A stretch of DNA of 37,307 nt from Candidatus Peregrinibacteria bacterium (lineage in GTDB: Bacteria; Patescibacteriota; Gracilibacteria; UBA1369; LOWO2-01-FULL-3): NCBI GenBank assembly GCA_016235895.1, contig JACRIB010000014.1:1-37307 (forward strand). Reading direction: 5' to 3'. The notes under the pieces are model-generated. The model made no database searches and was not told the DNA's origin. It saw only the letters and a program-made list of their open reading frames with translations. The translations under genes and the position numbers were made by a program. Shown piece after piece: positions 9,965 through 33,513 of this stretch. The first letter of the stretch is position 1, and each line of letters opens with the position of its first letter.

Positions 9965-10660
9965 TTATATCTTATTTTTGGATTTTTTCAATTTTCTATA
10001 AAAATTTTGCCAAAAAAGTTGTCCAAAAAATCGAATAATGCTCAAATAACTGGTTGGTTTGCTGGAAATTTTCATTTTATTTTTACGCACTGCTTCGATA
10101 AATGATCGTGGGTCTTTTTTGGCTTCTACAAATGTAAAACCATTGTCGAGGTGAGAAAGAATATGGCAGTCAGAAGTGGCGATCAAGGGTTTATTGAATT
10201 TTTTGGCCAACTCGATAGCTTTTTTATTATAGTTTTTTGTTTTTGTGTAGGCCCAGGAAATTTCGATGGCGTCGAAAAGCGCAATATTATCAGTTAAATC
10301 CTTTTTTAAACATTCATTTGTAGGGAAAAAAGGATGAGGAGCGATGATTAGGGTGTCACAATGATTTTGTCGATAGTTTGAGAGTTTTTTGAAATTATTC
10401 ACATTCAAAATATCAGCATGAGCGTTGATAGCGAGAATATGTTTACCATTAATTTCAAATTCGATACCCGGCAATAATAAAATTCTTTTTTTTGCCGCGT
10501 ATTTTTGCAATTTTTTGTTAAACAAAAGTCTGCGATGCAGAGTGATGCAAAGTACATCGTAATCCAGTCTTTTGGCCTCATCTATAAGCTTTTTCGGGCT
10601 ATAATTAATATGATCAACAGGATCGCCGTAACAGTGGCAGTGGAGTTGTATTTTTAACAT
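9965..10660 (-). CDS. PHP-domain metal-dependent phosphoesterase
   Basis: LHCH, ITLH, PGIE, APHPF, TSDCH motifs. Confidence 0.85.
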   Translation of the reverse strand: MLKIQLHCHCYGDPVDHINYSPKKLIDEAKRLDYDVLCITLHRRLLFNKKLQKYAAKKRILLLPGIEFEINGKHILAINAHADILNVNNFKKLSNYRQNHCDTLIIAPHPFFPTNECLKKDLTDNIALFDAIEISWAYTKTKNYNKKAIELAKKFNKPLIATSDCHILSHLDNGFTFVEAKKDPRSFIEAVRKNKMKISSKPTSYLSIIRFFGQLFWQNFYRKLKKSKNKI

Positions 10661-18647: not shown

Positions 18648-21600
18648 TTATTCAGAAAATCTGTTAAAAGTTTTGCGGTAATATTGATCGAGTGTGGCGA
18701 TATTGGTTTTTAAAATAATTTTTGAGGGGTTGTCGCCGTTGTTGGTTTTTATTACAAAATTTTGATTGTTGGTTGTTTTTCCGAGTAAGGCAAAGGGTAC
18801 ATTTGCAAAATGTTTTTCGAATTCGGCTTGGCGTTTGGGGTCGATGGTAACGACGAAGCGGGATTGGGATTCGGAGAAGAGTAGATGGTCGAGGCGTGTC
18901 GGCGGAAATTTGTTTTTTGTCGAAAAATTGGAGTTTAATAGGTTTGGGGCGTCCCGAGAATTCGAGTTAAAACCTGGAACTTTAGAGATGTCAATTTCCA
19001 TGCCCATCCGTCCTGCGATGGCTTTTTTGGCCAAAGTTATTCCTAGGCCACCAAATTGTGGGCTTAGTGCTGAGGAAATTAGGCGCTTCTCGACGGCGCT
19101 GCGGAAGGTGCGATAAAGTTTGATGGCGGATTTGGCGTCGACTTTTGGAACGGAGTTGCCGATGAAAGTCTCACCGGGGATAACTTTTGTGATAACTTTT
19201 GGCGCGTTCTCGGGAACGGATTTTGCCAAATCTTTTTGGTATTGAAAATATTCGCTCCCGCCCAGTTCGTCTTTAGTTTCTCCCAAAATATAAATTAAAT
19301 CGCCGGGAAATTTTGGATCGAGAGAAACGGCTAGGGTAAGGTCATCCAGCACGCCAAGTGAGGAAATTAAAAGTGTGGGGGAAACGGAAATTTTTACGGC
19401 TTTGCCTTGCGCGTCAAATCCTTTGAAGTCATTAAACATTGAATCTTTGCCGGAAATATATGGCGTGCCATAAGCAACTGCGTAGTCATAAACGGCTTCG
19501 CAAGCGGCTTTTAGCTGGCCTAATCTTTCCGGTTCATTCGAGCTGCACCAGCAGAAATTGTCCATCAAGGCCAGGTGATCAAGCGTGCCGCCGATGGCGA
19601 TCACATTGCGCACTGCCGTGTCGATGGCGCAAGCGGCCATGTGATAAGTGTCGATTTCGGAATAAATTGGATTCAAGCCCTGCGAACAAATTACACCGCG
19701 GGTGCTTTCCGGAAATGGCTTGGTGACTGAGGCAACGCCGTTTACGCGGCCGCGACCTTGCAGCGGTTTTATGATCGTGCCACCTTGTACGTTGTGGTCG
19801 TATTGAGTGCTGATGAATTCGTAGCTGCAGATGTTTGGGCGGGCGAGCACGTTGAGCAGAGTTTGAGTGAGGTCTGCGGGCTCTGGAAAATCCGGTTCCG
19901 GATTGCGTTTGTGATTTGGTAAATCTTCAATTCTTGTGTAAGTAGTTTTTAAAGATTTTCTTGGCAGACCTTCATGCAGAAAATCCATCGCCAGGTCCAT
20001 GATTTTTTCGTCATTAAATTTTACGACACATCTACCATCATCGGTAAATTCACCGATAACCGTCGATTCTACGTCGCGCTTGGCCATTAATTCTTCAAAT
20101 TCTGTCAGTTTTTCCGATGGAACGGCGAGGGTCATTCTTTCCTGTGATTCGCTGATCCAGATTTGCCAGGGCGAAAGGTTGGGATATTTCGTGGGAACTT
20201 TTTCGAGATTTACGAGGCATCCGCCGCATTCCTTAGCCATTTCTGGTACGGAACAGGAGATGCCGCCGGCGCCGTTATCGGTGATGCTATGGTAAAGTTC
20301 GCGATCACGAGCTTCTTTTACGATTGCGTCGGAGAATTTTTTCTGGGTAATCGGGTCGCCGATTTGTACGGCTGTTGCGGGACTTCCTGAGCTCAAAGCT
20401 TCCGAGGAAAATGTCGCGCCGTGAATTCCGTCCATGCCCACGCGTCCGCCGATTACTACGATTTTATCACCTTTTTCGGCTTTCTTTTCCCAACTGTTTT
20501 TGCCGTTAATTTTTCGCGGAATGAGTCCTATTGTTCCCACAAAAATCAGTGGTTTGCCCTTGTATCCATCATGAAAATAAACAAAACCTTGCGGGGTCGG
20601 GATGCCGCTGCAATTGCCGCCGGCGTTGACTCCTTCGATCACGCCTTCGAGAATTCTGTGAGGGGGGAGAGCGGCATTGGTGAGCTTGGCGTCGCGATAA
20701 ATAGGTTCCTTGTCAAAAGGGTTGCCAACACAAAAACCATATTTATTGATGATCGGTTTGGCACCTTTGCCAAAGCCGAGGCAGTCGCGATTTACGCCGA
20801 TGATTCCGGTGATCGCGCCGCCGAATGGATCGAGGGCGGAAGGGCTGTTGTGGGTTTCGGCTTTGTCGGTAATTATCCAGTTTTCATCGAAAATAATTCC
20901 GCCGGCATTGTCGGAGAAAACTGACATACAAAAGTCTCCTTTTGTAGGTTCAGGCTTAGCTCGGCCTGGCAGAGCCAGATCCTCGCTTTCGCCTTCGCGC
21001 TCGGACCGTGTCCTCGCTTTTGCTTTTCTAATATCGTTAGTCGCTTTCTTGATATAGCCTTTATATAACCCTTGCTCGTTTTGTAAAGCTCGCTCCTGCT
21101 CACGACCGGCTAAACCAGATCGTTCGCCGTCGCTGCGCACTCGCGCTGTGCGCTCGTTATCATCAATTTTTGCGGCGAAGATGGTATGCTTGCAATGTTC
21201 GGACCAGGTTTGAGCGAGAGATTCCAGTTCGATGTCGGTGGGTGGGCGATCTTCTTTTGCAAAATATTTTTTTATGACTTCAAGCGAATCTTTTTCCAGC
21301 GCTAGCGGTCCGCGACGTGTACCGTCTTTGTTTGGAATACCTTCTTTACCTAATTTTAATAATTCTTCTTCGGAAATACTTAAATCCACTTTGTCGACTT
21401 CCGGCTTGCTGCTGAGGTGAACGAGAGGGACGGTGGTGTCCATGCCGTTATCAGCGGCGAATTTCTCGTGACTCTTTATCGTAATGCGTTGGATTAAACT
21501 GTTGGCTAAATTGTCACCGATTTTTTCGACATCTTTTTCAGAGAGCTCGCCTTTAATAAAAATCAGCATCGAGCTATGCACGCTTTCTTCTGCGCTAAAT

Positions 21601-21920
21601 TTTAGTTTGAAAAAGTCTTCAATCGTTTCACGAGCTGTGGTGGCGATATTATCGGTCACGCCGGGCAGAAAGCCGATTTCCAGGGCGAAATTAAAGGAAA
21701 TTTCCTTTTGCGCTTCGTCAATTCCGTATTTTTGACTCACCGGATTTGAGAGCATTTCGGCGATTTCTTTGAGTTCTGATTTTTTGAAATCTTTGTTAAT
21801 GACGTAAACTTCGACAACAGTAGCGGAAGATATATTAAATCCACAAGACTGCAGCTTTTTGGCCATTACTTGAGATTTGCTGTCGTTAACCTTGGTGAAA
21901 ATTTCGATGCGATGCGCCAT
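18648..21920 (-). CDS. purL: Phosphoribosylformylglycinamidine synthase PurL with N-terminal PurS-like region; carries in-frame inserts
   Basis: LPGVTDN, QTWSEHCKH, KAETHNSPS, DGIHGATFSS, DNGAGG, SESQERM, QYDH, ISGKDS. Confidence 0.95.
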   Translation of the reverse strand: MAHRIEIFTKVNDSKSQVMAKKLQSCGFNISSATVVEVYVINKDFKKSELKEIAEMLSNPVSQKYGIDEAQKEISFNFALEIGFLPGVTDNIATTARETIEDFFKLKFSAEESVHSSMLIFIKGELSEKDVEKIGDNLANSLIQRITIKSHEKFAADNGMDTTVPLVHLSSKPEVDKVDLSISEEELLKLGKEGIPNKDGTRRGPLALEKDSLEVIKKYFAKEDRPPTDIELESLAQTWSEHCKHTIFAAKIDDNERTARVRSDGERSGLAGREQERALQNEQGLYKGYIKKATNDIRKAKARTRSEREGESEDLALPGRAKPEPTKGDFCMSVFSDNAGGIIFDENWIITDKAETHNSPSALDPFGGAITGIIGVNRDCLGFGKGAKPIINKYGFCVGNPFDKEPIYRDAKLTNAALPPHRILEGVIEGVNAGGNCSGIPTPQGFVYFHDGYKGKPLIFVGTIGLIPRKINGKNSWEKKAEKGDKIVVIGGRVGMDGIHGATFSSEALSSGSPATAVQIGDPITQKKFSDAIVKEARDRELYHSITDNGAGGISCSVPEMAKECGGCLVNLEKVPTKYPNLSPWQIWISESQERMTLAVPSEKLTEFEELMAKRDVESTVIGEFTDDGRCVVKFNDEKIMDLAMDFLHEGLPRKSLKTTYTRIEDLPNHKRNPEPDFPEPADLTQTLLNVLARPNICSYEFISTQYDHNVQGGTIIKPLQGRGRVNGVASVTKPFPESTRGVICSQGLNPIYSEIDTYHMAACAIDTAVRNVIAIGGTLDHLALMDNFCWCSSNEPERLGQLKAACEAVYDYAVAYGTPYISGKDSMFNDFKGFDAQGKAVKISVSPTLLISSLGVLDDLTLAVSLDPKFPGDLIYILGETKDELGGSEYFQYQKDLAKSVPENAPKVITKVIPGETFIGNSVPKVDAKSAIKLYRTFRSAVEKRLISSALSPQFGGLGITLAKKAIAGRMGMEIDISKVPGFNSNSRDAPNLLNSNFSTKNKFPPTRLDHLLFSESQSRFVVTIDPKRQAEFEKHFANVPFALLGKTTNNQNFVIKTNNGDNPSKIILKTNIATLDQYYRKTFNRFSE
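20939..21022 (-). mobile_element. In-frame structured mini-element copy A (78 nt) in purL
   Basis: Direct repeats CTTTTG at 20939-20944 and 21017-21022 (78 nt apart); shares CTGGCAGAGCCAGATCCTC with the galU copy; encodes ARTRSEREGESEDLALPGRAKPEPT. Confidence 0.85.
21074..21158 (-). mobile_element. In-frame structured mini-element copy B (78 nt) in purL
   Basis: Direct repeats GCTCGTT at 21074-21080 and 21152-21158; same hairpin layout and TACAAAA end as copies A and C; encodes RTARVRSDGERSGLAGREQERALQNE. Confidence 0.82.
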
Positions 21921-21926
21921 GTTTGA

Positions 21927-21955
21927 AAGATAACATTTTTAAAAAATGCTGGCAA
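21927..21955 (-). promoter_or_regulatory. Probable leaderless promoter of purL
   Basis: TTGCCA, 17 nt, TATCTT (TGn extended), 6 nt, ATG. Confidence 0.6.
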
Positions 21956-22011
21956 TAAAAACAAAAATATTCTAAAATGCGCTTCGCAATACTTTTTAAT
22001 CTAATAAATAT

Positions 22012-22566
22012 ATGAAAAAAGCTCTTCCCATCCTTTTAACGGCAATGATTTTGGTTGGTTGTTCCTCTCCTACAGTCATGAATGGTGACAAAAAAGTTCC
22101 TCTGGAATCTTATAATGGCGCGAATTTCAGTTTTAAATATCCGGGGGATTTAACTTTGACCAGCAATACCAATATGGTGGCCGGTTTTGGCGCCAGTCTT
22201 AGTGGGGTTGAGGGTTATCAGCCCGCGACAAACTTGAGCTCGGCCAGTATTCAAATAGCCAGTGATGATAGCGCGGCGATGTGTGAAGATGTCAATATTC
22301 AGGCTTTTGGTGGAAAACAGGGTAATCCGAGCACTGTCAGTATTGCCGGTACGGATTTCAAAAAACAGTTTTATCAGGATGCCGGTGCAGGGCAACGTGA
22401 GGATTCGATTGTTTATACTGCCGTGAATAACAAAAAATGCTACAAAATGGCTTTGGTAATGCAATATTCCGTTGTTGAAAATAGCGATGGTAAATTAAAG
22501 AAATTTGATCAACTAAAGCTGGAAAAAGTTTTTCAGGTTGTGGCCGATAGTTTTATATTTAACTAG
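22012..22566 (+). CDS. Lipoprotein (possibly PsbP-like fold)
   Basis: Lipobox LVGC; FSFKYP motif; C-terminal VADSFIF. Confidence 0.7.
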   Translation: MKKALPILLTAMILVGCSSPTVMNGDKKVPLESYNGANFSFKYPGDLTLTSNTNMVAGFGASLSGVEGYQPATNLSSASIQIASDDSAAMCEDVNIQAFGGKQGNPSTVSIAGTDFKKQFYQDAGAGQREDSIVYTAVNNKKCYKMALVMQYSVVENSDGKLKKFDQLKLEKVFQVVADSFIFN

Positions 22567-22575
22567 GATTGTCGC

Positions 22576-24204
22576 CTATTTCTTGAAATCTTTCATGTCA
22601 CTGTTTGAGATGGAAGTTTTCGCTCCATCCTCATTTTTGCCTGTGGAACTGGCGATGATGGTATAGGACATGTCTGATTCGAAGGAAATTAGCGCGTCGG
22701 ATTTTAGTGTTATTTGGCCGTCTTTGACTTCTACCGTGGCATTATTGGATGGAGTTTCACCACCGGCGTTTTTAATGGTGAAAGTATTGCCGCTGCGATT
22801 CAATTTATAATTTATTTCGTCCAAACAAGGATTTATGCTATTATTGCCGTAATTTTTGCACATGGTAGCGGAAACTTCGTAGCTGTCGGCGCCAACATCT
22901 TTAAAGGTGACATTAAATTTGCTGCCCTGCGTGGTCGCGTCTTTGGCCGGAGCGGTGATTTCCGGCTGATTTAACGGCTTTGGAATTGGTACGGTGATTT
23001 TTTTGGCTATGTAGCTGTCGTCTTCGAAAGTGATTTTTAAAAGATAGTCTTTGGATGGAAGTTTGAGTTCGTCATTGGTAAGGGTGTCGCTGCAGCGATG
23101 AGGAAAACGCGGGCGGTCACACATTGAACCGGTTTGGCTTTTGGGGTCGGTGTCCTTGAGATCTGTAAGGTACATTAATCTTGGTTGTAGAGCTGGCGGA
23201 AGGTCTACGGTAAGCGGCATTTCGATGGCGTATTTTTTGTTTTCTTTCAACTTCAGATCCGGCCTTTCCAAGTAAACGTCAAATTCAAAAGTATTGCCTT
23301 CCGGGTAACTGGTGTTGGTGCCGTTGGCGCTGGTCAATAAAATTTGATCGAGTTGAAAATTTGCTTTGGCGTCTTTTAGCACTAATGCATCAGGTTTGTA
23401 GAAAGTGTAAGATTGCTGTTCTTGTTCGTAAAAAGCTTTTTTATCCGATGAGTAATAGTAGTCTTCGCCATTATCTTTTATCGCTTTCATTCGATAGAGC
23501 ATTTCTGCTACTTCTTTGCGGGACATGGAGTCGTTTGGCAGAAATTCGTAGTAGTAAGGGCCTTTTTCTTCCGCTTTGGAAATATCAATGTGTTTTGTGC
23601 CAACGGTGTTGGTTTTCAGCGCATATTCCAGATATTTGTAGAACCAAAGTTTCGAATCTTGAGTATCTGCAGGCATGCCTTCTATGCCTTGAAATTTCCA
23701 TTTTTTTTCGGGAATGTCATTATTTGTAAACTCTATTGAGGCCATTTTTATGGCTTCGGCACGTTTGACACAAACGTCGGGGCGGAATTTTCCGTCTTTG
23801 TAACCTTCGATGGTTTTGTGCTCGCGGGCGGTGCGGATGTAGGGCGCATACCACTCGGAATCGGGTGTGTCCGGAAATAATTCAGCGGTGGATTTGCCGG
23901 AGTCTACTGAAAGAGTTTTAAAAAGCATTTTCAGAAACTCGGCACGATTTACGCATTTGTCAGGTTTAAACGTGCCATCTTCGTAGCCGTTGATGACCTG
24001 ATTTTGTTGCATCCAGAGGATGGAATTTTGGTAGTTGGTTTGATCGTTGACATCTGAAAAATCGGCAAAAGCCGGGAAAATTTGCGAGAAAATTAGAACA
24101 ACTGCAACTGCGAGTGGAGCAAGAAATTTTGAGGAAAATTTCATAGAACTGTCAAAATATTTACCCTCGTTGGCTTTATGAATTAATCTGTTTTCTGTAA
24201 ACAT
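22576..24204 (-). CDS. SLH-domain surface protein
   Basis: Signal peptide from alternative start 24144 (MKFSS...AFA), SLH repeats (INGYEDGTFKPDKCVNRAE; IEGYKDGKFRP), beta-rich C-terminus. Confidence 0.85.
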   Translation of the reverse strand: MFTENRLIHKANEGKYFDSSMKFSSKFLAPLAVAVVLIFSQIFPAFADFSDVNDQTNYQNSILWMQQNQVINGYEDGTFKPDKCVNRAEFLKMLFKTLSVDSGKSTAELFPDTPDSEWYAPYIRTAREHKTIEGYKDGKFRPDVCVKRAEAIKMASIEFTNNDIPEKKWKFQGIEGMPADTQDSKLWFYKYLEYALKTNTVGTKHIDISKAEEKGPYYYEFLPNDSMSRKEVAEMLYRMKAIKDNGEDYYYSSDKKAFYEQEQQSYTFYKPDALVLKDAKANFQLDQILLTSANGTNTSYPEGNTFEFDVYLERPDLKLKENKKYAIEMPLTVDLPPALQPRLMYLTDLKDTDPKSQTGSMCDRPRFPHRCSDTLTNDELKLPSKDYLLKITFEDDSYIAKKITVPIPKPLNQPEITAPAKDATTQGSKFNVTFKDVGADSYEVSATMCKNYGNNSINPCLDEINYKLNRSGNTFTIKNAGGETPSNNATVEVKDGQITLKSDALISFESDMSYTIIASSTGKNEDGAKTSISNSDMKDFKK

Positions 24205-24285
24205 GGTGGCATAATTAAATTATGGGGCTTAGGTTAGCATCAAGAAAAGATCTATGTCAAAGGTTTTCGCTTCGCTCAAGTGCTG

Positions 24286-27078
<2,793 letters not shown>

Positions 27079-27084
27079 GAGTCA

Positions 27085-27113
27085 ATTATCAATTTAAAAT
27101 GTATAATTTGCAA
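27085..27113 (-). promoter_or_regulatory. Probable leaderless promoter of secA
   Basis: TTGCAA, 17 nt, GATAAT, 6 nt, ATG. Confidence 0.55.
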
Positions 27114-27183
27114 TTTTCATAGCGAAAAATTTTCGCAGCGCGGTGATTTTAACATTTATTTGGCTCAAAGGTGATGTTTGTGG

Positions 27184-27211
27184 TTGACAATGTCTGGAAA
27201 GTTGTTAGAAT
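27184..27211 (+). promoter_or_regulatory. Promoter of the 27243 gene
   Basis: TTGACA, 16 nt, TG-n-TAGAAT. Confidence 0.6.
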
Positions 27212-27242
27212 CGCTGCCTGTAGTTTTTAAAACAATAAATTT

Positions 27243-27740
27243 ATGGCAGAATTCGAAGGTTTAGATGGCGAGGAATTTACTACCGATAGGGTATATGTAT
27301 GTCCCGATGATGGTCAGGATTTTGATCCGCAGCGTATTGGTTTTGGTAAGGCTCGGAGACCTTCTAAAGACAAACTTGTTAATGATGATTTACCGGGTGA
27401 TTATTTTGTAGATTTTCATTCTATCGATGACGGCACTGTAGCTGTTAGGGCTGATGTTTGTGACCTTTTCGATGGTCATTTTGCTCATGATCCCTCTGTT
27501 GTTATGCGTGAAAGTGAAGTTCGTGCCAGAGTTTCTGGAGTTTCTGATGATTTACTTGATGCCGATTCTTTTCATGTTGTGGGTGATGGTCATTTTAGGC
27601 AATCACGGCAGTCTACGCATATTCAGGGAACTGTAAAAACTTTTGATGAACTTCTTGAGCGCACTTTGGGTCAATCTATGCGTCGCAGACCGGCTTCTGT
27701 TACTTCTCGAGGGACGTTTGATACGCAGGTTCGCCGCTGA
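27243..27740 (+). CDS. Acidic hypothetical protein, possibly frameshifted and continuing to 27861
   Basis: 165-aa Asp-rich ORF with its own promoter; +1 frame ORF with the same codon style continues past the TGA. Confidence 0.6.
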   Translation: MAEFEGLDGEEFTTDRVYVCPDDGQDFDPQRIGFGKARRPSKDKLVNDDLPGDYFVDFHSIDDGTVAVRADVCDLFDGHFAHDPSVVMRESEVRARVSGVSDDLLDADSFHVVGDGHFRQSRQSTHIQGTVKTFDELLERTLGQSMRRRPASVTSRGTFDTQVRR

Positions 27741-27869
27741 GGCCGCAGGATTGGGTAAGCCGGATTATCAGAGTAGTCCTGTTGCCGATGAAAAGAAGGT
27801 AGAGGAACAGTCTGTTCTTGATAAGGCTTTTGACAGAAGTGCGTTTTGCACTAGTGATTAATTCTGTGC

Positions 27870-29306
27870 TTACTCCTTGTACCCTTTCGCGATCACGCCC
27901 AGCGTGCCGAGGATAATTTTGAGGTCGCCGAGGATGGACCAGTTTTCGATGTAGAAGCGGTCGAGTTTGGCTTCGGCGTCGAAGTTTAGGTCGGAGCGGC
28001 CGTTTACTTGGGCGAGGCCGGTTAAGCCGGGTTTGATGTTGAAAACGAAGTGGTGTTGTTTTTGATATTTGGCTACCTCTTCAGGTAAATGCGGTCTCGG
28101 GCCCACGAGACTCATGTTGCCTATGAGAACGTTCCAGAGTTGTGGCAATTCGTCGATGGAATAACGGCGGATGAATTTGCCGATGTGGGTGACGCGCGGG
28201 TCGTTAGCTATTTTCATTAGCGGGCCGTCTTTGCGGAGGTTTTTGTTTTCCAAATTTTTACGGAGGTGATGGGTATTATTAAACATCGAGCGGAATTTGT
28301 AACAGGTGAAAAGTTTTTCCTTTTGGCCCACGCGGCGCGCGGGGGAGCCATCTTCCAGTTTGCTGAAAAAAATTGGGCCTTTGGAATCGAGCTTGATGGC
28401 GATGGCGGTGAGCAAGAAAATTGGCGAAAGAATTATGAGGCCGAGGGTGGCACCGACGATGTCGAGAATTCTTTTACCTACTTTGCCCCAGCCGTCGAGT
28501 GGAGTGGGTTTGAGATTAATAATCGGGATGCTGCCGATGGTTTCTATTTCCACGTTGGTACGGCGCACGTCCAAAAGATCGGGGATAAAACGATAATTTA
28601 TTTGATTCAGTTCACAAAATTCCAGGATGTTTTGATCTTGAGCTTCGTTAGCATCGGACTTTGTTTGAATAATTTCATCGATTTTAATTTTTTTGAGAAT
28701 TGTTTCAAGGTCGGAGAGATTACCAAGATGTTTTATCGGGCCTTCCGGAGTTTTGTCGCCAATCAGTCCGAGAATTTTGTAACTGGCGTTTTTGTCTAAT
28801 TCCAGGCCAATTTCCTGGGTCACGGTGTTGTTGCCAATAAAGACTAAACGGCGCTGACCGATGCCGATGTGGAGGAATCCTTTTTGAATTAAGCGGATGA
28901 TGGCGCGGCCCAGAATTGTAAAAAGCAAGGCGAGAGCCCAGCTGTAAGCCATCGCCAAGCGGGAAAAGGGAAAAATCCTGGCAAAGAAAAAATAAGTGAT
29001 AATTGCCGTAGCCCAGATGATGCAGAGTAAAATGTTTTGTCGCACTTCTTTGGAAAATTTTGCTGTCGTTTTTAGCGAATACATCTCTCCGAAAGCAAAA
29101 ATTACGATGAGGGCAAGCGCCGCTTTTATGCTAAAAATTAAATATTGCGGGAGGGTCGGGAGCACGGAAAAATCGATGGCTTTGGAGATGCCATTGATGG
29201 GTTCGGTAATTAGGCGAAGCTTGTAAGCTACCACGAAAGCGAGGACGGTCATCAGAAAATCGGTGGGAATTTTCAGCAGACCGAAAAATATTTCAAAACG
29301 CTTCAT
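27870..29306 (-). CDS. Polyprenyl-phosphate hexose-1-phosphate transferase (WcaJ/CpsE-like)
   Basis: N-terminal TMs, [57 protein letters not shown]. Confidence 0.93.
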
Positions 29307-29331
29307 GGGGTGGATTTTTCAATTGGCTCCT

Positions 29332-29771
29332 AAATGAATCTTCATAAGCCGAGTTTTGTAGGTCTGATTGGTTTTTGATGCCAGCCAAATCTTGTGATCA
29401 TCTATCTTTTGGTTGTTTGGAGATCCTTTAGTTTTTTGGCTTTAGGATCACGTTTGCAACTCGTTGCAGTGAGAAAGTTTTATTCATTTGGGAGAACAAA
29501 AACTTTTCCATCTCACCTTGCACCTCGTAGGGTTTACCAACTTCCCGACGAAATGTCGGGGTTTCCCGCTGAACGGGACTTTTCACCTTTCACCCCACCT
29601 TGCGGCGGGACTAGTATTGTCTCTGTGGCACTTTCCCTCAAAGGTTTTTTTCTTGCGAATTATGGCCTTTGCGGCGCGCTGTTAGCGGCTACGATTTCCC
29701 GTGGTGTCCGGACTTTCCTCTCTGATAATGGCTTTTGCAAGCCTAATCAAAGCGATCACTCCAACTCATTT
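29332..29771 (-). ncRNA. rnpB: RNase P RNA
   Basis: GAGGAAAGTCC (29720-29710), AGTGCCACAGA (29632-29622), GGTAAACCC (29538-29530), ACAAAACTCGGCTTA (29359-29345), complementary P1 ends; boundaries approximate. Confidence 0.93.
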
Positions 29772-29783
29772 AAGAGCGGGGTT

Positions 29784-29811
29784 ATTATAATAGATATGCG
29801 GAAAAATGCAA
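29784..29811 (-). promoter_or_regulatory. Promoter of rnpB
   Basis: TTGCAT, 16 nt, TATAAT, then a C-rich discriminator-like sequence. Confidence 0.65.
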
Positions 29812-29821
29812 TCCGGCTTGT

Positions 29822-30730
29822 TTATTTCTTTAGCGCTACTTCCAGGATTTGTGCGTCTTTAAAACCTGCGCTCAATTTTAAATATTTTTTGTAATCTTTG
29901 CCACATTCATTGAGGGCTTTTTCGGGAACGAGGCCTATTACTTCGCTTTCCAGGATTTCGACCCCTTCTTTTTTGGCCTCTTTTTTGATCAAATCGTAGA
30001 CCTTTTTGATGCCGGTTTCTTTATAATTTATCAGATTCATGGAAACTTGGACGATGCCACGATTGGCCAGTTCCAATCCCAGAGCCTTGATGGAGGGTAG
30101 GCCACCATTACTGAAGCGGATTTTGCGGGCGATTTCACGGGCCAGAAAAATGTCATTGCTGGCGAGATTTACGTTGTAGGCAATGAGAATTTCGCGCACG
30201 CCGATGGCTATGGCGCCGGCGGACCCGAGTTTTTCAGGACCATAATCCGGCTTTCTTTCGGGGTTCGTGCCTATTTCATCTTTTAATTTTTCATAACCCA
30301 AATTGCGGACCTCGCTGAGGTTTTCGCGTTCCGGTTTGCTCGCGGCTTTTTCATACAGATAAACGGGAATTTTTAGATCTTTGGCGATTTTGGCGCTGAG
30401 TTTTTTGGCTAATTCCAGACAATCTTTGATGTTAGCATTTTTTAGAGGGACGAGAGGCAGAACATCGGTAGCGCCGATGCGTGGATGTACACCTGTGTGC
30501 TCATTGACATTTATCAATTTGGCTGCGGTTTTTACAGCTTCGAAGGCAGCCTTAAAGACAGCTTTTGGCTCACCGGCAAAGGTGATCACGGTGCGGTTGT
30601 GATTGTGATCGCTGGTGACATGGAGAATGTGGATTCCTTTGATTTTGCTGATTGCATCACGGATTTTTTGAATTTTCTTGGGGTCGCGTCCTTCGCTGAA
30701 ATTCGGAATACATTCTATTAACTTTGCCAT
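29822..30730 (-). CDS. Glutamate formiminotransferase
   Basis: IECIPNFSEGR, DHNHNRTV, HTGVHPRIGATDV, LIAYNVNL, VQVSMNL, SEVIGLVP. Confidence 0.93.
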   Translation of the reverse strand: MAKLIECIPNFSEGRDPKKIQKIRDAISKIKGIHILHVTSDHNHNRTVITFAGEPKAVFKAAFEAVKTAAKLINVNEHTGVHPRIGATDVLPLVPLKNANIKDCLELAKKLSAKIAKDLKIPVYLYEKAASKPERENLSEVRNLGYEKLKDEIGTNPERKPDYGPEKLGSAGAIAIGVREILIAYNVNLASNDIFLAREIARKIRFSNGGLPSIKALGLELANRGIVQVSMNLINYKETGIKKVYDLIKKEAKKEGVEILESEVIGLVPEKALNECGKDYKKYLKLSAGFKDAQILEVALKK

Positions 30731-30827
30731 AGGCCTACTTTATAGGCTAAATTTGAAAAGTTGCAAGGGAATGATGGAATGGGAGTTTTCGTTAATTTTG
30801 GTTGCGGATTTCGGAAATTGTTGTAGA

Positions 30828-30888
30828 AAAGTGTGCGCGCGCAGACTTTTTTGGTCATCTTGTGGCTCAAATAAGCCATTTTGTATTT
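30828..30888. repeat. 61-bp double-hairpin direct repeat, left copy
   Basis: AAAGTGTGCGCGCGCAGACTTT...TGGCTCAAATAAGCCATTTTGTATTT; 45/61 ungapped identity by hand count to 31349-31409. Confidence 0.75.
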
Positions 30889-30945
30889 CGCCTGTGGTTT
30901 GAGTTTTTGTTTGTAAGTTGGTGGTTATTATAATAGATTTGTATT

Positions 30946-31350
30946 ATGTCCGATAAGAATTCTACAATTCATTTCGTAATAACAGGAGGGACGATAGATT
31001 CTTTTTATGATGGCAGTAAAGATACCGCTGTAACTAACGAACATTCCATTGAGACCAGCAAACATAAAAAAATTCTCGTGACGCATGGGACGTATACGAT
31101 GTCTGATACCGCCAGATTTTTGAAAGCAAATTTGAAAAGAAAGGATCAGGTGATTATTTTGACCGGATCAATGATTCCGATTAACGGCTTTTCGCCTTCT
31201 GATGGACCTTTTAGTCTGGGCTATGCAATCGCTCAATTGGAACATTTGAAGCCGGGAATTTATGTCTGCGTGAATGGACGAGTTTTTTCGCCGGAAGAAG
31301 TGGTTAAAGTTATAGGTGAGGGCAGATTTTCTTCAATTTTTGAAAGATAA
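30946..31350 (+). CDS. Asparaginase N-terminal-domain-like protein, apparently internally deleted
   Basis: TGGTID, THGTYTM, ILTGSMIP, SDGPFSLG, GIYVCVNG; the segment between GGT and HGT motifs is unusually short. Confidence 0.75.
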   Translation: MSDKNSTIHFVITGGTIDSFYDGSKDTAVTNEHSIETSKHKKILVTHGTYTMSDTARFLKANLKRKDQVIILTGSMIPINGFSPSDGPFSLGYAIAQLEHLKPGIYVCVNGRVFSPEEVVKVIGEGRFSSIFER

Positions 31351-31409
31351 AGTCTGCCCGGGCAGACTTTTAGCGCCAATAAATGGTTCAAGTAAGCCAT
31401 CTTGTGTTT
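31349..31409. repeat. 61-bp double-hairpin direct repeat, right copy (may double as bidirectional terminator)
   Basis: Perfect 22-bp palindrome AAAGTCTGCCC|GGGCAGACTTT, then ATGGTTCAAGTAAGCCAT hairpin; fills the gap between convergent genes. Confidence 0.75.
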
Positions 31410-31784
31410 TTAGGCTGCCTGGTAAAAAATCGGGCTGCCTCCCTGGGCGCAGTTTGAAGTGTTTTGTTGGATGATGGTGGCGACTTCGGTGTTGTCGGCG
31501 TATTTTTTCAGAATAACCATCATCGCGTCGTTATTGTCAGCCGGCAGCTTGTATTTGGCATAAATATCATCGAGTTTTTTCTGATTGTCAGTGCTATTTT
31601 CAGCCAGTTTTGGGTCTTTGATCACCATGCAGGTGAATTCGATATTGGCATTGATAAAAGCCGAATATTCCTCCGCGTCGGAGGTGATCACTTTCGTGCG
31701 CGGACTGCAACTTTTGAGGCCAAAAATTATGAGAGCGATAATGACGACGGTGACTAAAATTCCAATGACGACTTTTTTATCCAT
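31410..31784 (-). CDS. Membrane-anchored hypothetical protein
   Basis: MDKK + hydrophobic helix; start moved to 31784 because TACACT lies 6 nt upstream. Confidence 0.7.
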   Translation of the reverse strand: MDKKVVIGILVTVVIIALIIFGLKSCSPRTKVITSDAEEYSAFINANIEFTCMVIKDPKLAENSTDNQKKLDDIYAKYKLPADNNDAMMVILKKYADNTEVATIIQQNTSNCAQGGSPIFYQAA

Positions 31785-31816
31785 GGCTCGAGTGTATCGC
31801 AAATAAAGAAAAAGTT

Positions 31817-32422
31817 TTAGTCTTTCTTCTTGTTCTTCAATTTTTCAAATTCTCGCTGGAAGAAGCGGACGGCGTTCAGACATTCTTTGGCTTTTTGATT
31901 GTCCGGCTCGATTTGGAGAGTTTTTTTGAACAATAGAGCGGCGCGATCGAAATCTTTGTCGTTCAAATGGCAAACGCCGAGGTCGTTCAAAATCAAAGGA
32001 TCGTTTGGGGCTAAATAAAGCGCTCTTTCAAGTAAAATGATACCGCGTTTTTGCTGACCGGAATGGTACATGCTCCAGCCAAGACAACGGAGAATTTCCG
32101 GATGATTTGGATAAGCTTTGTCGGCGTGTTCCAAAAGTGTGACGGATTCTTTCCAATTTCCGGTGCAGGAATACACGAAGCCGAGAAGGTAATTGGCATT
32201 GGCGCTGTTCTTGTTTAATTTTATTGCTTGTCGGAGAGCTTTTTCCGCTCTGTCGTATTTACGCAGACTCAAATAATTATCGCCGATTTCTTCGTAGGCC
32301 TCCACACAACCGAGGTCGCCGGAAAGGATTCTTTCACAAAGATGAATGGCTTCCAGGTGTTTGCCTTCATTTTTTTTCTTGTCCGCCTCCTCAATTAATG
32401 GATGTACTTTGTGTTCCGACAT
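31817..32422 (-). CDS. Tetratricopeptide repeat protein
   Basis: Repeated TPR patterns (AYEEIG..Y, ANYLLG.VY, LRCLG, LNDLG...ALLFKKTLQIEPDN). Confidence 0.88.
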   Translation of the reverse strand: MSEHKVHPLIEEADKKKNEGKHLEAIHLCERILSGDLGCVEAYEEIGDNYLSLRKYDRAEKALRQAIKLNKNSANANYLLGFVYSCTGNWKESVTLLEHADKAYPNHPEILRCLGWSMYHSGQQKRGIILLERALYLAPNDPLILNDLGVCHLNDKDFDRAALLFKKTLQIEPDNQKAKECLNAVRFFQREFEKLKNKKKD

Positions 32423-32559
32423 AAGATTTTTTTTATTTTTGTTTTGGCCCTAACTTTTCTTATCTGAGCATTATAGCAAAAAAAACCTTTCGAAACAAGT
32501 CAGCAAAAGTGGTTTTCTTTGCAAGTTTGTTGACAGAAATTGAATTCGTGAGAGGTTTC

Positions 32560-33513
32560 TTATTTTTTTATACTTTTCAAAAACCTCAAATATTCGCCGC
32601 TTAATTCTTTATGCTTTAGGGCGAAGTGCGTGACGGCTTTGAGGTAGCCGAGTTTGTCGCCGGTGTCGAAGCGGGCGCCGCTGATTTCGTAGCCGTAAAT
32701 GGGGGAGTGTTTGATGAATTTGCGCATGCCGTCGATGAGCCTAATTTCTTTATTTTGTAAGCTCGGCTGCGTTCGGACTGGCAGAGCCAGATCCTCACTT
32801 TGCCTGCGCCCTCGGCCTGTGGCCTCGGTTTGTAAGCTCACTGTTTTTTCCAGGTCTTTCAATAGCTCCGGCGTGACGATGTATTTGCCGATAATGGCGA
32901 GGTTGGAGGGGGCCTTTGAGGGCTTTGGTTTTTCAACCAGGCTTTTGATTTTGTGGAGTTGATGAATGTGGTTTTTGGCTTTTTCTTGTTCACATTCTAC
33001 AATGCCATATTTTTCCGAATCCTTTTTGCCGATTTTGTGGAGGCCGATGATGGGTGAGCCGAGTTTTTCATATTCTTTTATTAACTGGGCGATGGCGGGA
33101 GTTTTGCTGTCATAAATATCGTCACCGAAGAGGACGGCAAAGGGTTCGTTCTTCACAAATTCTTTGGCGCAGAGGATGGCGTGGCCGTCGCCAAGCGGTT
33201 TAGGCTGTCTGACGTAGCTGAATTTGGCCATCTTTTCAATTTTTTCTAGTTCGCGGATAGCTTTTTGTTTGCCGTTTTTTTCGAGGTGCGAAATTAATTT
33301 TGGCGAAATATCAAAATAATCTTCGATGGATTGTTTGCCTTCGGCGGTGATAATGATGATCTCTGTAATTCCGCTTGCTACAGCCTCTTCAACGAGGTAT
33401 TGAATGCAGGGTTTGTCAACGATCGGCAGCATTTCCTTGGGCTGGGATTTTGTGGCGGGAAGAAAACGAGTGCCGAGTCCGGCGGCGGGAATAATAGCTT
33501 TGCGGATTTTCAT
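32560..33513 (-). CDS. galU: UTP--glucose-1-phosphate uridylyltransferase with in-frame insert
   Basis: IPAAGLGTRFLPATK..PKEMLP, RQ..PLGDGHA, VEKP, RFDTG.KLGY. Confidence 0.95.
   Translation of the reverse strand: MKIRKAIIPAAGLGTRFLPATKSQPKEMLPIVDKPCIQYLVEEAVASGITEIIIITAEGKQSIEDYFDISPKLISHLEKNGKQKAIRELEKIEKMAKFSYVRQPKPLGDGHAILCAKEFVKNEPFAVLFGDDIYDSKTPAIAQLIKEYEKLGSPIIGLHKIGKKDSEKYGIVECEQEKAKNHIHQLHKIKSLVEKPKPSKAPSNLAIIGKYIVTPELLKDLEKTVSLQTEATGRGRRQSEDLALPVRTQPSLQNKEIRLIDGMRKFIKHSPIYGYEISGARFDTGDKLGYLKAVTHFALKHKELSGEYLRFLKSIKK
32754..32839 (-). mobile_element. In-frame structured mini-element copy C (75 nt) in galU
   Basis: 11-bp direct repeats TTTGTAAGCTC at 32754-32764 and 32829-32839; homologous to the purL copies; encodes SLQ-TEATGRGRRQSEDLALPVRTQP-SLQ. 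Confidence 0.88.

Follow-up and report, generated by a model that had tools for sequence, protein, structure and literature searches.

A structured interspersed repeat of about 75 nucleotides in Peribacteria/Peregrinibacteria, carried between genes and in frame within purL, galU and other housekeeping genes

The window considered here, i.e., the whole stretch of 37,307 nucleotides (nt) of contig JACRIB010000014.1 (GCA_016235895.1) from a Candidatus Peregrinibacteria bacterium, harbors three short GC-rich segments set in frame within coding sequence, two of them in a purL-like gene and one in a galU-like gene. We show that these segments belong to a lineage-specific family of interspersed repeats, about 75 nt in length, of Peribacteria/Peregrinibacteria, i.e., uncultured groundwater bacteria with small genomes, and that its copies have multiplied to widely varying extents in close relatives. 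The element consists of two hairpins supported by covariation. It is found mostly in sense relative to the local transcription unit and inserts at A-rich sites, often immediately after the 3' tail of a copy already present, giving rise to head-to-tail arrays. In our assessment, it is likely to be a non-autonomous mobile repeat which is translated where it lies in frame.

The source genome, coded G000, is a metagenome-assembled genome (MAG) of 1.14 Mb in 120 contigs and is 88% complete. It was compared with 40 relatives, designated by the other G numbers (41 genomes in total), among which G010 is a MAG of 83% completeness, whereas G173 and G107 are nearly complete genomes. The genomes compared are kin, such that counts across them do not represent independent samples. 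Open reading frames (ORFs) were called mechanically. The two host genes in the window and their inserts are as follows:

18648..21920, minus strand: first host gene, coding for a PurL-like FGAM synthase of 1090 amino acids (aa), with two element copies (Pfam AIRS, AIRS_C, FGAR-AT_linker)
20939..21016, minus strand: copy A in purL, a 78-nt insert with CAAAAG on both sides (match to covariance model R1 at 20936-21022, 63.8 bits)
21079..21156, minus strand: copy B in purL, a 78-nt insert equivalent to 26 aa (ERTARVRS...ERALQN; R1 match at 21076-21162, 74 bits)
32560..33513, minus strand: second host gene, coding for a GalU-like UTP-glucose-1-phosphate uridylyltransferase of 317 aa (Pfam NTP_transferase; PDB 7o2n, E=3e-80)
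32754..32828, minus strand: copy C in galU, 75 nt (R1 match at 32749-32833, 84.2 bits)

The element cores occupy positions 20941-21017 (copy A), 21081-21157 (copy B) and 32754-32828 (copy C), and all three lie on the minus strand in gene sense, as had been proposed in a previous sequence-only reading of this DNA. Their mean column identity in the alignment is 71%, and the G+C content of the elements is about 58-60%, compared to 42% for the genome. The spacing of the direct repeats (78, 78 and 75 nt, with junction repeats of 6, 6 and 11 nt, respectively) and the absence of stop codons in the host frame were both reproduced in our examination. So was the occurrence of the peptide SEDLALP in copies A and C, with the central hairpin of copy B being read in another frame. 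The junction of copy B is ambiguous by 6 nt, owing to AACGAG flanking it on both sides. At copy A, two codons beside the site that are present in the orthologues are absent here, and the net gain is 24 aa; the loops added in the family appear to span 24-26 aa. Ahead of copy C stands an 11-nt duplicate of the 3' end of the element (32829-32839), which is probably the stump of an older copy, the newer one having inserted directly behind it.

The GalU protein aligns to the YngB structure (7o2n) on both sides of the insert, which replaces an eight-residue loop. In an AlphaFold2 (AF2) model of GalU based on 13 sequences (mean predicted local distance difference test score, pLDDT, of 79.6), residues 229-253 show pLDDT values below 50 and are devoid of secondary structure, while the flanks reach 94-95. 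The model fits a disordered surface loop at this position.

A profile constructed from the three window copies alone, which themselves score 4e-19 to 9e-21 in that search, detected 15 further copies in G000 at E<1e-3. The similarity of the segments thus greatly exceeds what chance would give. Iteration of the profile increased the number to 26 copies, and covariance model R1 to 27 (some of the tallies below use 26). The family inferred earlier from three copies is thus larger than those three and indeed conserved at the level of the nucleic acid, its copies being read in three frames; its presence in coding genes is upheld, but most copies are intergenic. Core lengths of the G000 copies range from 73 to 77 nt. 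Atypical forms include one copy with a 20-nt insertion in the apical loop and one with about 40 nt in the first hairpin, and three copies are internally deleted.

Matches to the element occur in 16 of the 41 genomes (G000 and 15 of its 40 relatives), with 1-34 matches in each. Within the genus, copy counts of 2, 3, 4, 6 and 34 are found beside the 27 of G000, and another genus of the same family exhibits 25 copies. In an even, class-wide sample, 8 of 151 genomes match; seven of the matches are strong, all in the window's own order, and one marginal match (E=5e-4) falls outside it. An exact-pattern scan of one genome per species, which catches 34 of 81 known copies and hence provides a lower bound, retrieved at least 69 stretches; almost all of these belong to MAGs that bear the label Candidatus Peribacteria or Peregrinibacteria. 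The remainder comprises a few labelled Gracilibacteria and single contigs labelled Burkholderiaceae and Nitrospirota, and the latter two are suspected to be mis-binned. Viral contigs yielded no matches in the pattern scan. Among Rfam families, only RNase P and a tRNA were identified in the window at gathering score, none corresponding to the element, and a search of three loci (four copies) at E<=1 gave no match to it either. In the literature searched, we found no description of such repeats in the candidate phyla radiation (CPR), Patescibacteria or Peregrinibacteria, and they are not mentioned in the accessible part of the Peribacteria genome paper (PMC4736985).

The consensus fold, as predicted by RNAalifold from a MAFFT alignment of 23 copies, contains 17 pairs, 12 of which display compensatory changes, and forms two hairpins. 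The 5' hairpin possesses a covarying stem of 3-4 bp with CGAG on each side, and these flanks could form tandem G.A pairs. The 3' hairpin is long and irregular, with a conserved apical stem and purine-rich internal loops, and ends in an A-rich tail, TAYAAA. There are no terminal inverted repeats, the two consensus ends being paired elsewhere: a local hairpin takes up the 5' end, and the partner of the 3' end lies mid-element. The fraction of paired cells in the alignment is 96.9%, versus 75.1% in column shuffles (none of 500 as high) and 23-40% with slid partners, and 80 cells are changed on both sides where 24 would be expected. The earlier designation of the family as structured is therefore well founded. 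G-U pairs account for just 3 of 389 paired cells, the covariation being almost purely Watson-Crick. When single sequences of the sense strand are folded, copies A and C recover the fold and copy B its 3' hairpin. The fold energies are modest relative to shuffled sequences (z of -0.4 to -2.6); the antisense RNA of the window copies folds more weakly by 6-8 kcal/mol, and the G.A-rich internal loops occur on the sense strand only.

Alignment of orthologues revealed empty sites for all three window copies. In the PurL alignment (14 genomes), copy B is present in G000 only, and the other 13 orthologues (13/13) read straight through. The site of copy A is filled in G000 and in its congener G005, with the same loss of two codons, and is empty in 12 of 13 orthologues, including three congeners. 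The galU site is empty in 11 of 13 genomes, and in the congeners G001 and G005 the same loop contains shorter, differing GC-rich inserts with pieces of the element; this locus appears to display turnover of copies directly.

Four sites are common to G000 and G005, namely purL A, Pgl, GrpE and a position upstream of tRNA-Ser. The element identities there are 68/77, 68/77, 68/78 and 65/86, respectively, and those of the 45-nt flanks 21-41/45. Copy A includes two compensated pairs in hairpin 1 between the two genomes. Altogether, nine stem pairs differ between orthologous copies: eight differ on both sides and still pair, none differs on one side, and one is broken in one copy. The fold at such sites is either kept by selection in place, or the copies are overwritten by conversion or by turnover through insertion and deletion.

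The possibility of an assembly artefact, which the sequence-only reading had allowed for, is not borne out by the data. A Logan contig from a separate assembly (4533 nt, depth 153) spans window positions 20300-21800 with 0 differences, and the two purL inserts are hence no artefact of MAG assembly. This contig originates from a run that is probably the source sample, and as such it does not constitute independent data. Contigs of two further runs, X2 and X3, cover the stretch in part, and no joined form lacking the inserts was seen in the sequencing-run contigs examined.

In G000, 11 of 26 copies are located inside long sense ORFs and 15 are intergenic. Ten of the in-frame copies lie in nine Pfam-recognised genes. 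In addition to purL and galU, these code for a MurD-like ligase, a fumarase-type lyase (Lyase_1/FumC), PGM/PMM, UvrA, G6PD, Pgl and GrpE, and in these seven further hosts Pfam domains flank or cross the insert. Together with the empty sites in orthologues, these hosts substantiate in-frame insertion into unrelated housekeeping genes. The eleventh in-frame copy is in an ORF of contig C78 without a Pfam match; a second copy on C78 is scored upstream of a gene.

All three sense frames are used, by 3, 3 and 5 copies. The 11 coding copies are all open in the host frame, compared to 11 of 30 sense frames in the ten full-length intergenic copies, and the coding copies in the two usually closed frames are stop-free variants, e.g., with an altered tail. 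Core length modulo three fails to distinguish coding from intergenic copies, and the junctions restore the frame. ORFs make up about 91% of G000; the finding of 15 of 26 copies in the roughly 9% of non-ORF DNA therefore indicates strong purging of intragenic insertions. Antisense in-frame copies exist in genuine enzyme genes (TsaD-like in G010 and alanine-racemase-like in G004), which fits translation and not orientation-dependent removal from the RNA. The in-frame copies thus appear, from their sequences, to be translated as tolerated loops of 24-26 aa.

Two observations on host genes in relatives are of interest in their own right. In G010, contig C65 (L035/L100, 2932-6837) contains a stop-free frame of 1301 aa that joins PurL to a PurQ-like glutamine amidotransferase via an element copy; two tandem copies are located near the end of the PurQ-like part, and the first 56 residues of PurL end another contig. 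Either the element mediated a fusion and rearrangement here, or the assembly broke at the repeat. In G173, three paralogous Cys-rich proteins of about 590 aa (L176, L177 and L178) each bear a copy at the same position, and the insertion would thus be older than the duplications or have been copied with them.

A scheme that would account for these features is the following. Given a genome of about 91% ORFs, most insertions into genes would be lost, and the intragenic insertions that persist would be those that restore the reading frame and hold no stop. Such copies would be transcribed and translated with the host as a hydrophilic, disordered loop of 24-26 residues, in which Arg, Glu, Ala, Ser and Gly would be abundant, at positions able to accommodate it. 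Recognition of the two-hairpin structure probably falls to a mobilising machinery that would be supplied in trans, the substrate of which could be single-stranded DNA or RNA. At orthologous sites, the structure might be retained by selection, or by replacement and conversion from other copies. A purely selfish nature and mobilisation in trans, both advanced in the sequence-only reading, are matters that we infer; the compensated stem changes and the strong sense-strand bias are also compatible with a role as RNA or with insertion linked to transcription, two options absent from that reading.

Several points weigh against a mobile repeat that is translated where in frame. No mobilising enzyme was found in the genomes searched, and no transposition event was directly observed. 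No RNA runs containing this DNA were found. The argument from open frames is partly circular, inasmuch as a stop-bearing copy in a gene would be scored as two ORFs. A check for such split genes covered the intergenic copies of G000: the flanking ORFs are distinct genes, according to Pfam or the N-terminus, in three pairs (DedA-like/GT4, NrdR/YkuD and atpA-like/atpG-like), single genes downstream of intergenic copies include S13 and PrsW, and the pair on contig C11 comprises two proteins without recognised identity and stands outside this verdict. Two of the 27 G000 copies reside on contig C78, which may be mis-binned: positions 8137-10638 of C78 (L013) are 99.9% identical over 2502 nt to C54 (L096) of G010, although the two genomes belong to different genera and their PurL proteins are about 75% identical. 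Probably, either C78 or its G010 counterpart is mis-binned, or DNA was recently exchanged. Moreover, orthologous copies are more conserved than their coding flanks, and the differences in their stems are compensated, which would not be expected for pure junk unless conversion or turnover is frequent. Finally, the sense bias described below for three genomes is weak in a second set (27 copies in four other genomes), in which four copies inside ORFs are sense and four antisense. The sense cases are an ArgRS-like gene and the three paralogous Cys-rich proteins with the same site; one of the antisense cases is real (alanine racemase), and the other three concern spurious ORFs that cross tRNA arrays.

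The orientation of the element was assessed on 84 copies in G000, G005 and G010, and the tests were repeated, as a control, after inverting every element. In ORFs of 150 aa or more, 28 copies were scored in sense versus 1 when flipped; an ORF starts within 80 nt past the 3' end of the element in 23 versus 3 cases, and an ORF ends just before its 5' end in 21 versus 8. Many intergenic copies, in sense, terminate 5-13 nt ahead of a start codon or 4-54 nt ahead of a tRNA.

The end of the element in many intergenic copies is exactly 8 nt before the start codon (atpG-like, ThyA-like, HrcA-like and other genes; 11 nt in the case of S13), a distance that leaves no room for a Shine-Dalgarno sequence. 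Examples of start-adjacent copies are G000 C91:5187-5259, C11:13349-13422 and C20:3931-3967, and those on L077, L083 and L066 of G005. Scans for sigma-70 promoters and intrinsic terminators at two intergenic copies detected none at the element. The idea that the TATAAA tail serves as a -10 box for leaderless genes was dropped in view of the empty promoter scan, itself a weak test, as it demands T in the last position of the hexamer.

These orientation data bear on a possible, though on balance doubtful, alternative: that the element acts or moves at the level of RNA or transcription, translation of the intragenic copies being a side effect. The fold could then be a protein-binding, processing or stabilising module, or insertion could proceed via the exposed non-template strand or an RNA intermediate. 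In addition to the sense bias inside ORFs and upstream of starts, this alternative draws on the position of intergenic copies just before start codons or tRNAs, always in sense, on the G.A loops and better folding of the sense RNA, and on the orthologous copies, where compensation is seen at 8 of the 9 stem pairs that differ and the identity of the element (87-88%) exceeds that of the flanks (47-82%). On the other hand, 3 G-U pairs in 389 paired cells would be unusual for an RNA under selection, the fold energies are close to those of shuffled sequence, genuine antisense in-frame copies exist, three copies in G107 point away from the nearest gene, and Rfam offers no match at E<=1. The C-rich replication-strand bias described below points to a component at the level of DNA. 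Reverse transcriptase (RT), moreover, does not track the element: in the 41 genomes, both are present in 8, the element only in 8, RT only in 9 and neither in 16, such that RT occurs in 8 of 16 genomes with the element versus 9 of 25 without it. The RT of G000 looks, judged by its ORFs, like that of a diversity-generating retroelement; its ORF on contig C87 (L063, 782-2118) is apparently split (1107-1532 and 1570-2118) and adjoins a small helical protein on the opposite strand. According to a reading of the ORFs, the RT of G005 adjoins a restriction subunit gene.

The strand on which the element resides was also compared with that of replication. The GC skew of G000 is of the replication type, its sign being independent of gene strand in 555 of 592 genes. 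It is unusually strong (0.1-0.24 per contig), with genes split near-evenly (318 of 592 on the G-rich strand). The sense strand of the element is on the C-rich strand in 22 of 27 G000 copies, or in 20 of 24 loci after neighbouring copies were grouped by us (two-sided binomial p=0.0015). In G005, 24 copies are on the C-rich and 9 on the G-rich strand (18 versus 6 where |skew| is >=0.1). The skew of G010 is weak and gives no strand signal, and it is weak in most of the second set as well. On contig C26 of G005, two oppositely oriented copies 700 nt apart each match the neighbouring gene and not the replication strand. Where the two are comparable, gene orientation is the better predictor.

At the insertion sites, the 5' flanks are A-rich at positions -5 to -3 (31, 31 and 38 of 65 copies) and often resemble the tail of the element or the bases just beyond it. 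Head-to-tail pairs number 11 among the 84 copies, and G173 contains arrays of three and four. Many copies are framed by imperfect direct repeats (5-11 nt), but these coincide in part with the conserved 3' tail, and no fixed target-site duplication can be defined; the junction repeats represent either a target duplication of variable length or insertion on the 3' side of a target that resembles the tail.

Transposons of the IS200/IS605 and REP/RAYT types are characterized by subterminal hairpins, the lack of terminal inverted repeats, insertion 3' of a short target and an orientation dictated by the lagging-strand template. Derivation of the element from such a single-strand DNA transposon, in which case selection would account for the sense bias in genes, seems somewhat unlikely to us. 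Hairpins without terminal inverted repeats agree with this origin, as do the A-rich 5' flanks that resemble the TAYAAA tail, the placement of new copies directly behind old ones, the almost purely Watson-Crick covariation and the C-rich strand bias in G000 and G005, which is observed even though 318 of 592 genes lie on the G-rich strand. It is opposed by the pair on C26, which follows genes and not replication, by the weak skew of G010 and most of the second set, and by the failure to find the corresponding enzymes. Y1 transposase (PF01797) was not detected in 8 of 10 element-bearing genomes searched (G000, G005, G010, G173, G107, G004, G003 and G001), the high-copy G000, G005 and G010 among them; the only PF01797 matches in these ten genomes are in G008 (with an internal TGA) and G036 (weak). 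TnpB (PF07282) had no match above the cut-off in any of 5 genomes.

The search for other mobilising enzymes was similarly unproductive. No IS110-type enzyme was found in the genomes tried, and PF01548 and PF00665 showed no consistent presence in the genomes searched. The Y2 search (PF04986) gave no match anywhere, controls included, and is hence uninformative. DDE transposases are sporadic among the genomes searched: DDE_Tnp_1 is present in G000 (on contig C78 only), G005 and G010, and absent from G173 and G107. Self-BLAST of G000 disclosed no repeats of the size of insertion sequences (IS), the longest repeat being 677 nt at 89% identity. In line with the earlier reading, the window contains no transposase, and none was found to track the element in the genomes searched.

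A more specific proposal, which we judge to be unlikely, is that the element is a transcription-strand-specific mobile module. It would enter only the sense strand of transcribed DNA, with access via single-stranded DNA that is exposed when head-on genes form transcription bubbles or R-loops, or by way of an RNA intermediate; its fold would be selected at each site as a functional RNA. If this were the case, the fold would work in mRNAs, operon spacers and tRNA leaders, and enzymes of these bacteria with minimal genomes would carry an RNA element in their coding sequence and tolerate its translation.

It is highly improbable that the enzymes lack the extra loop because the inserts are removed as a mini-intron ahead of translation or skipped in its course by ribosomal bypass from one junction repeat to the other. 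The direct repeats of 6-11 nt that bracket the window copies, the hairpin that starts at the 5' junction and the sense bias would all fit such a process. Removal, however, would not require open frames or a length divisible by three, both of which are kept in every intragenic copy examined; the copies in usually closed frames are stop-free variants, in-frame copies occur antisense in the alanine-racemase-like and TsaD-like genes, no stop codon follows the would-be take-off site, and no intron or ribozyme family of Rfam matches. The remaining notion, which takes the segments for ordinary protein loops of this lineage or for an artefact of assembly, might appeal to the hydrophilic character and variable positions of the inserts, but is refuted by the 27 genomic copies, most of them intergenic, by the reading of the same DNA in three frames, by the empty sites in close congeners and by the reproduction of the locus in the separate assembly.

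Two additional features were noted. A second and longer repeat, about 190 nt in size and bounded by a perfect terminal inverted repeat of 17 bp (GGAACCTCTGAAAAACG), represents a classical MITE (miniature inverted-repeat transposable element) and holds the 3' hairpin module of the mini-element inside. It is found in G000 on C78 (L013) at about 10250-10470 and in G010 at L089:13785, L091:4878, L100:5733, L102:1941 and L103:1, and one copy lies antisense and in frame within a TsaD-like gene. The window also codes for an RNase P RNA (29327-29772, minus strand; class A, 126 bits) of 446 nt versus a model of 367 positions. Its expansions (31 versus 8 nt, 55 versus 23 nt and an extra 17 nt) do not match the element.

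The element can be compared with several known systems. Translational bypass elements, such as those of phage T4 gene 60 and the yeast mitochondrial 'byps', are short GC-rich inserts in AT-rich coding sequence with matching junction codons and a hairpin. The present inserts resemble them in being short and GC-rich, with matching junction codons and a hairpin, but are always multiples of three and stop-free, with no stop after the 5' junction; bypass is consequently not needed. The palindrome-associated elements of the IS200/IS605 group and the REP/BIME-RAYT systems combine hairpins with strand behaviour linked to replication, insertion by a short sequence, and arrays. Like these, the element employs hairpins in place of terminal inverted repeats and forms arrays, and it may share their replication-linked strand behaviour and their insertion beside a short sequence. 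In contrast to these systems, many of its copies are intragenic, and neither a Y1 transposase nor a RAYT is found in 8 of 10 element-bearing genomes. It is also longer than REPs and lacks their GTAG/CGTC head, as given in the accessible part of PMC3733652. Classical MITEs, according to the accessible part of PMC10969869, are likewise short, multi-copy repeats of the non-autonomous kind, in some cases joined in frame to ORFs. Unlike them, the element lacks terminal inverted repeats, nor is a clean target-site duplication apparent.

To our knowledge, Rickettsia provides the one textbook example of a selfish repeat that has invaded essential genes in frame. The comparison with Rickettsia palindromic elements (RPEs), drawn already in the sequence-only reading, proves apt. 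As portrayed in the accessible parts of PMC10969869, PMC1779305 and PMC1166351, RPEs are 100-150 bp in length, belong to many families, often lie in frame in metabolic genes and have no known transposase. Both RPEs and the present element are small, hairpin-forming interspersed repeats of a small genome, situated between genes and in frame in housekeeping genes; both add a conserved peptide, have proliferated in a lineage-specific manner with remnants in orthologues, and are devoid of an identified transposase. The element differs in its length of about 75 nt (cores of 73-77 nt) versus 100-150 and in its host phylum, CPR/Patescibacteria and not Rickettsiales. By size and host it is not a member of the RPE families, and it is set apart on those features alone. 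Considered beside RPEs, it appears from the sequences to be translated in all three sense frames, commonly forms head-to-tail arrays, and is strongly biased toward sense and toward the C-rich replication strand.

The family thereby provides an independent and cleaner case than RPEs, at half the size and with a well-defined, covarying fold, in CPR bacteria whose 1-Mb genomes are usually thought to be streamlined. It offers empty and filled orthologous sites, varied copy numbers within one genus and measurable strand rules, and opens to testing the mode of movement of such elements, their translation and their possible contribution of new protein loops. Its copies also affect annotation, in that they inflate or fuse ORFs (as in the stop-free purL-purQ frame of a relative) and probably break assemblies. 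On the best reading of these likenesses, the element would be the closest functional analogue so far of the RPEs, in a new phylum and with a new architecture.

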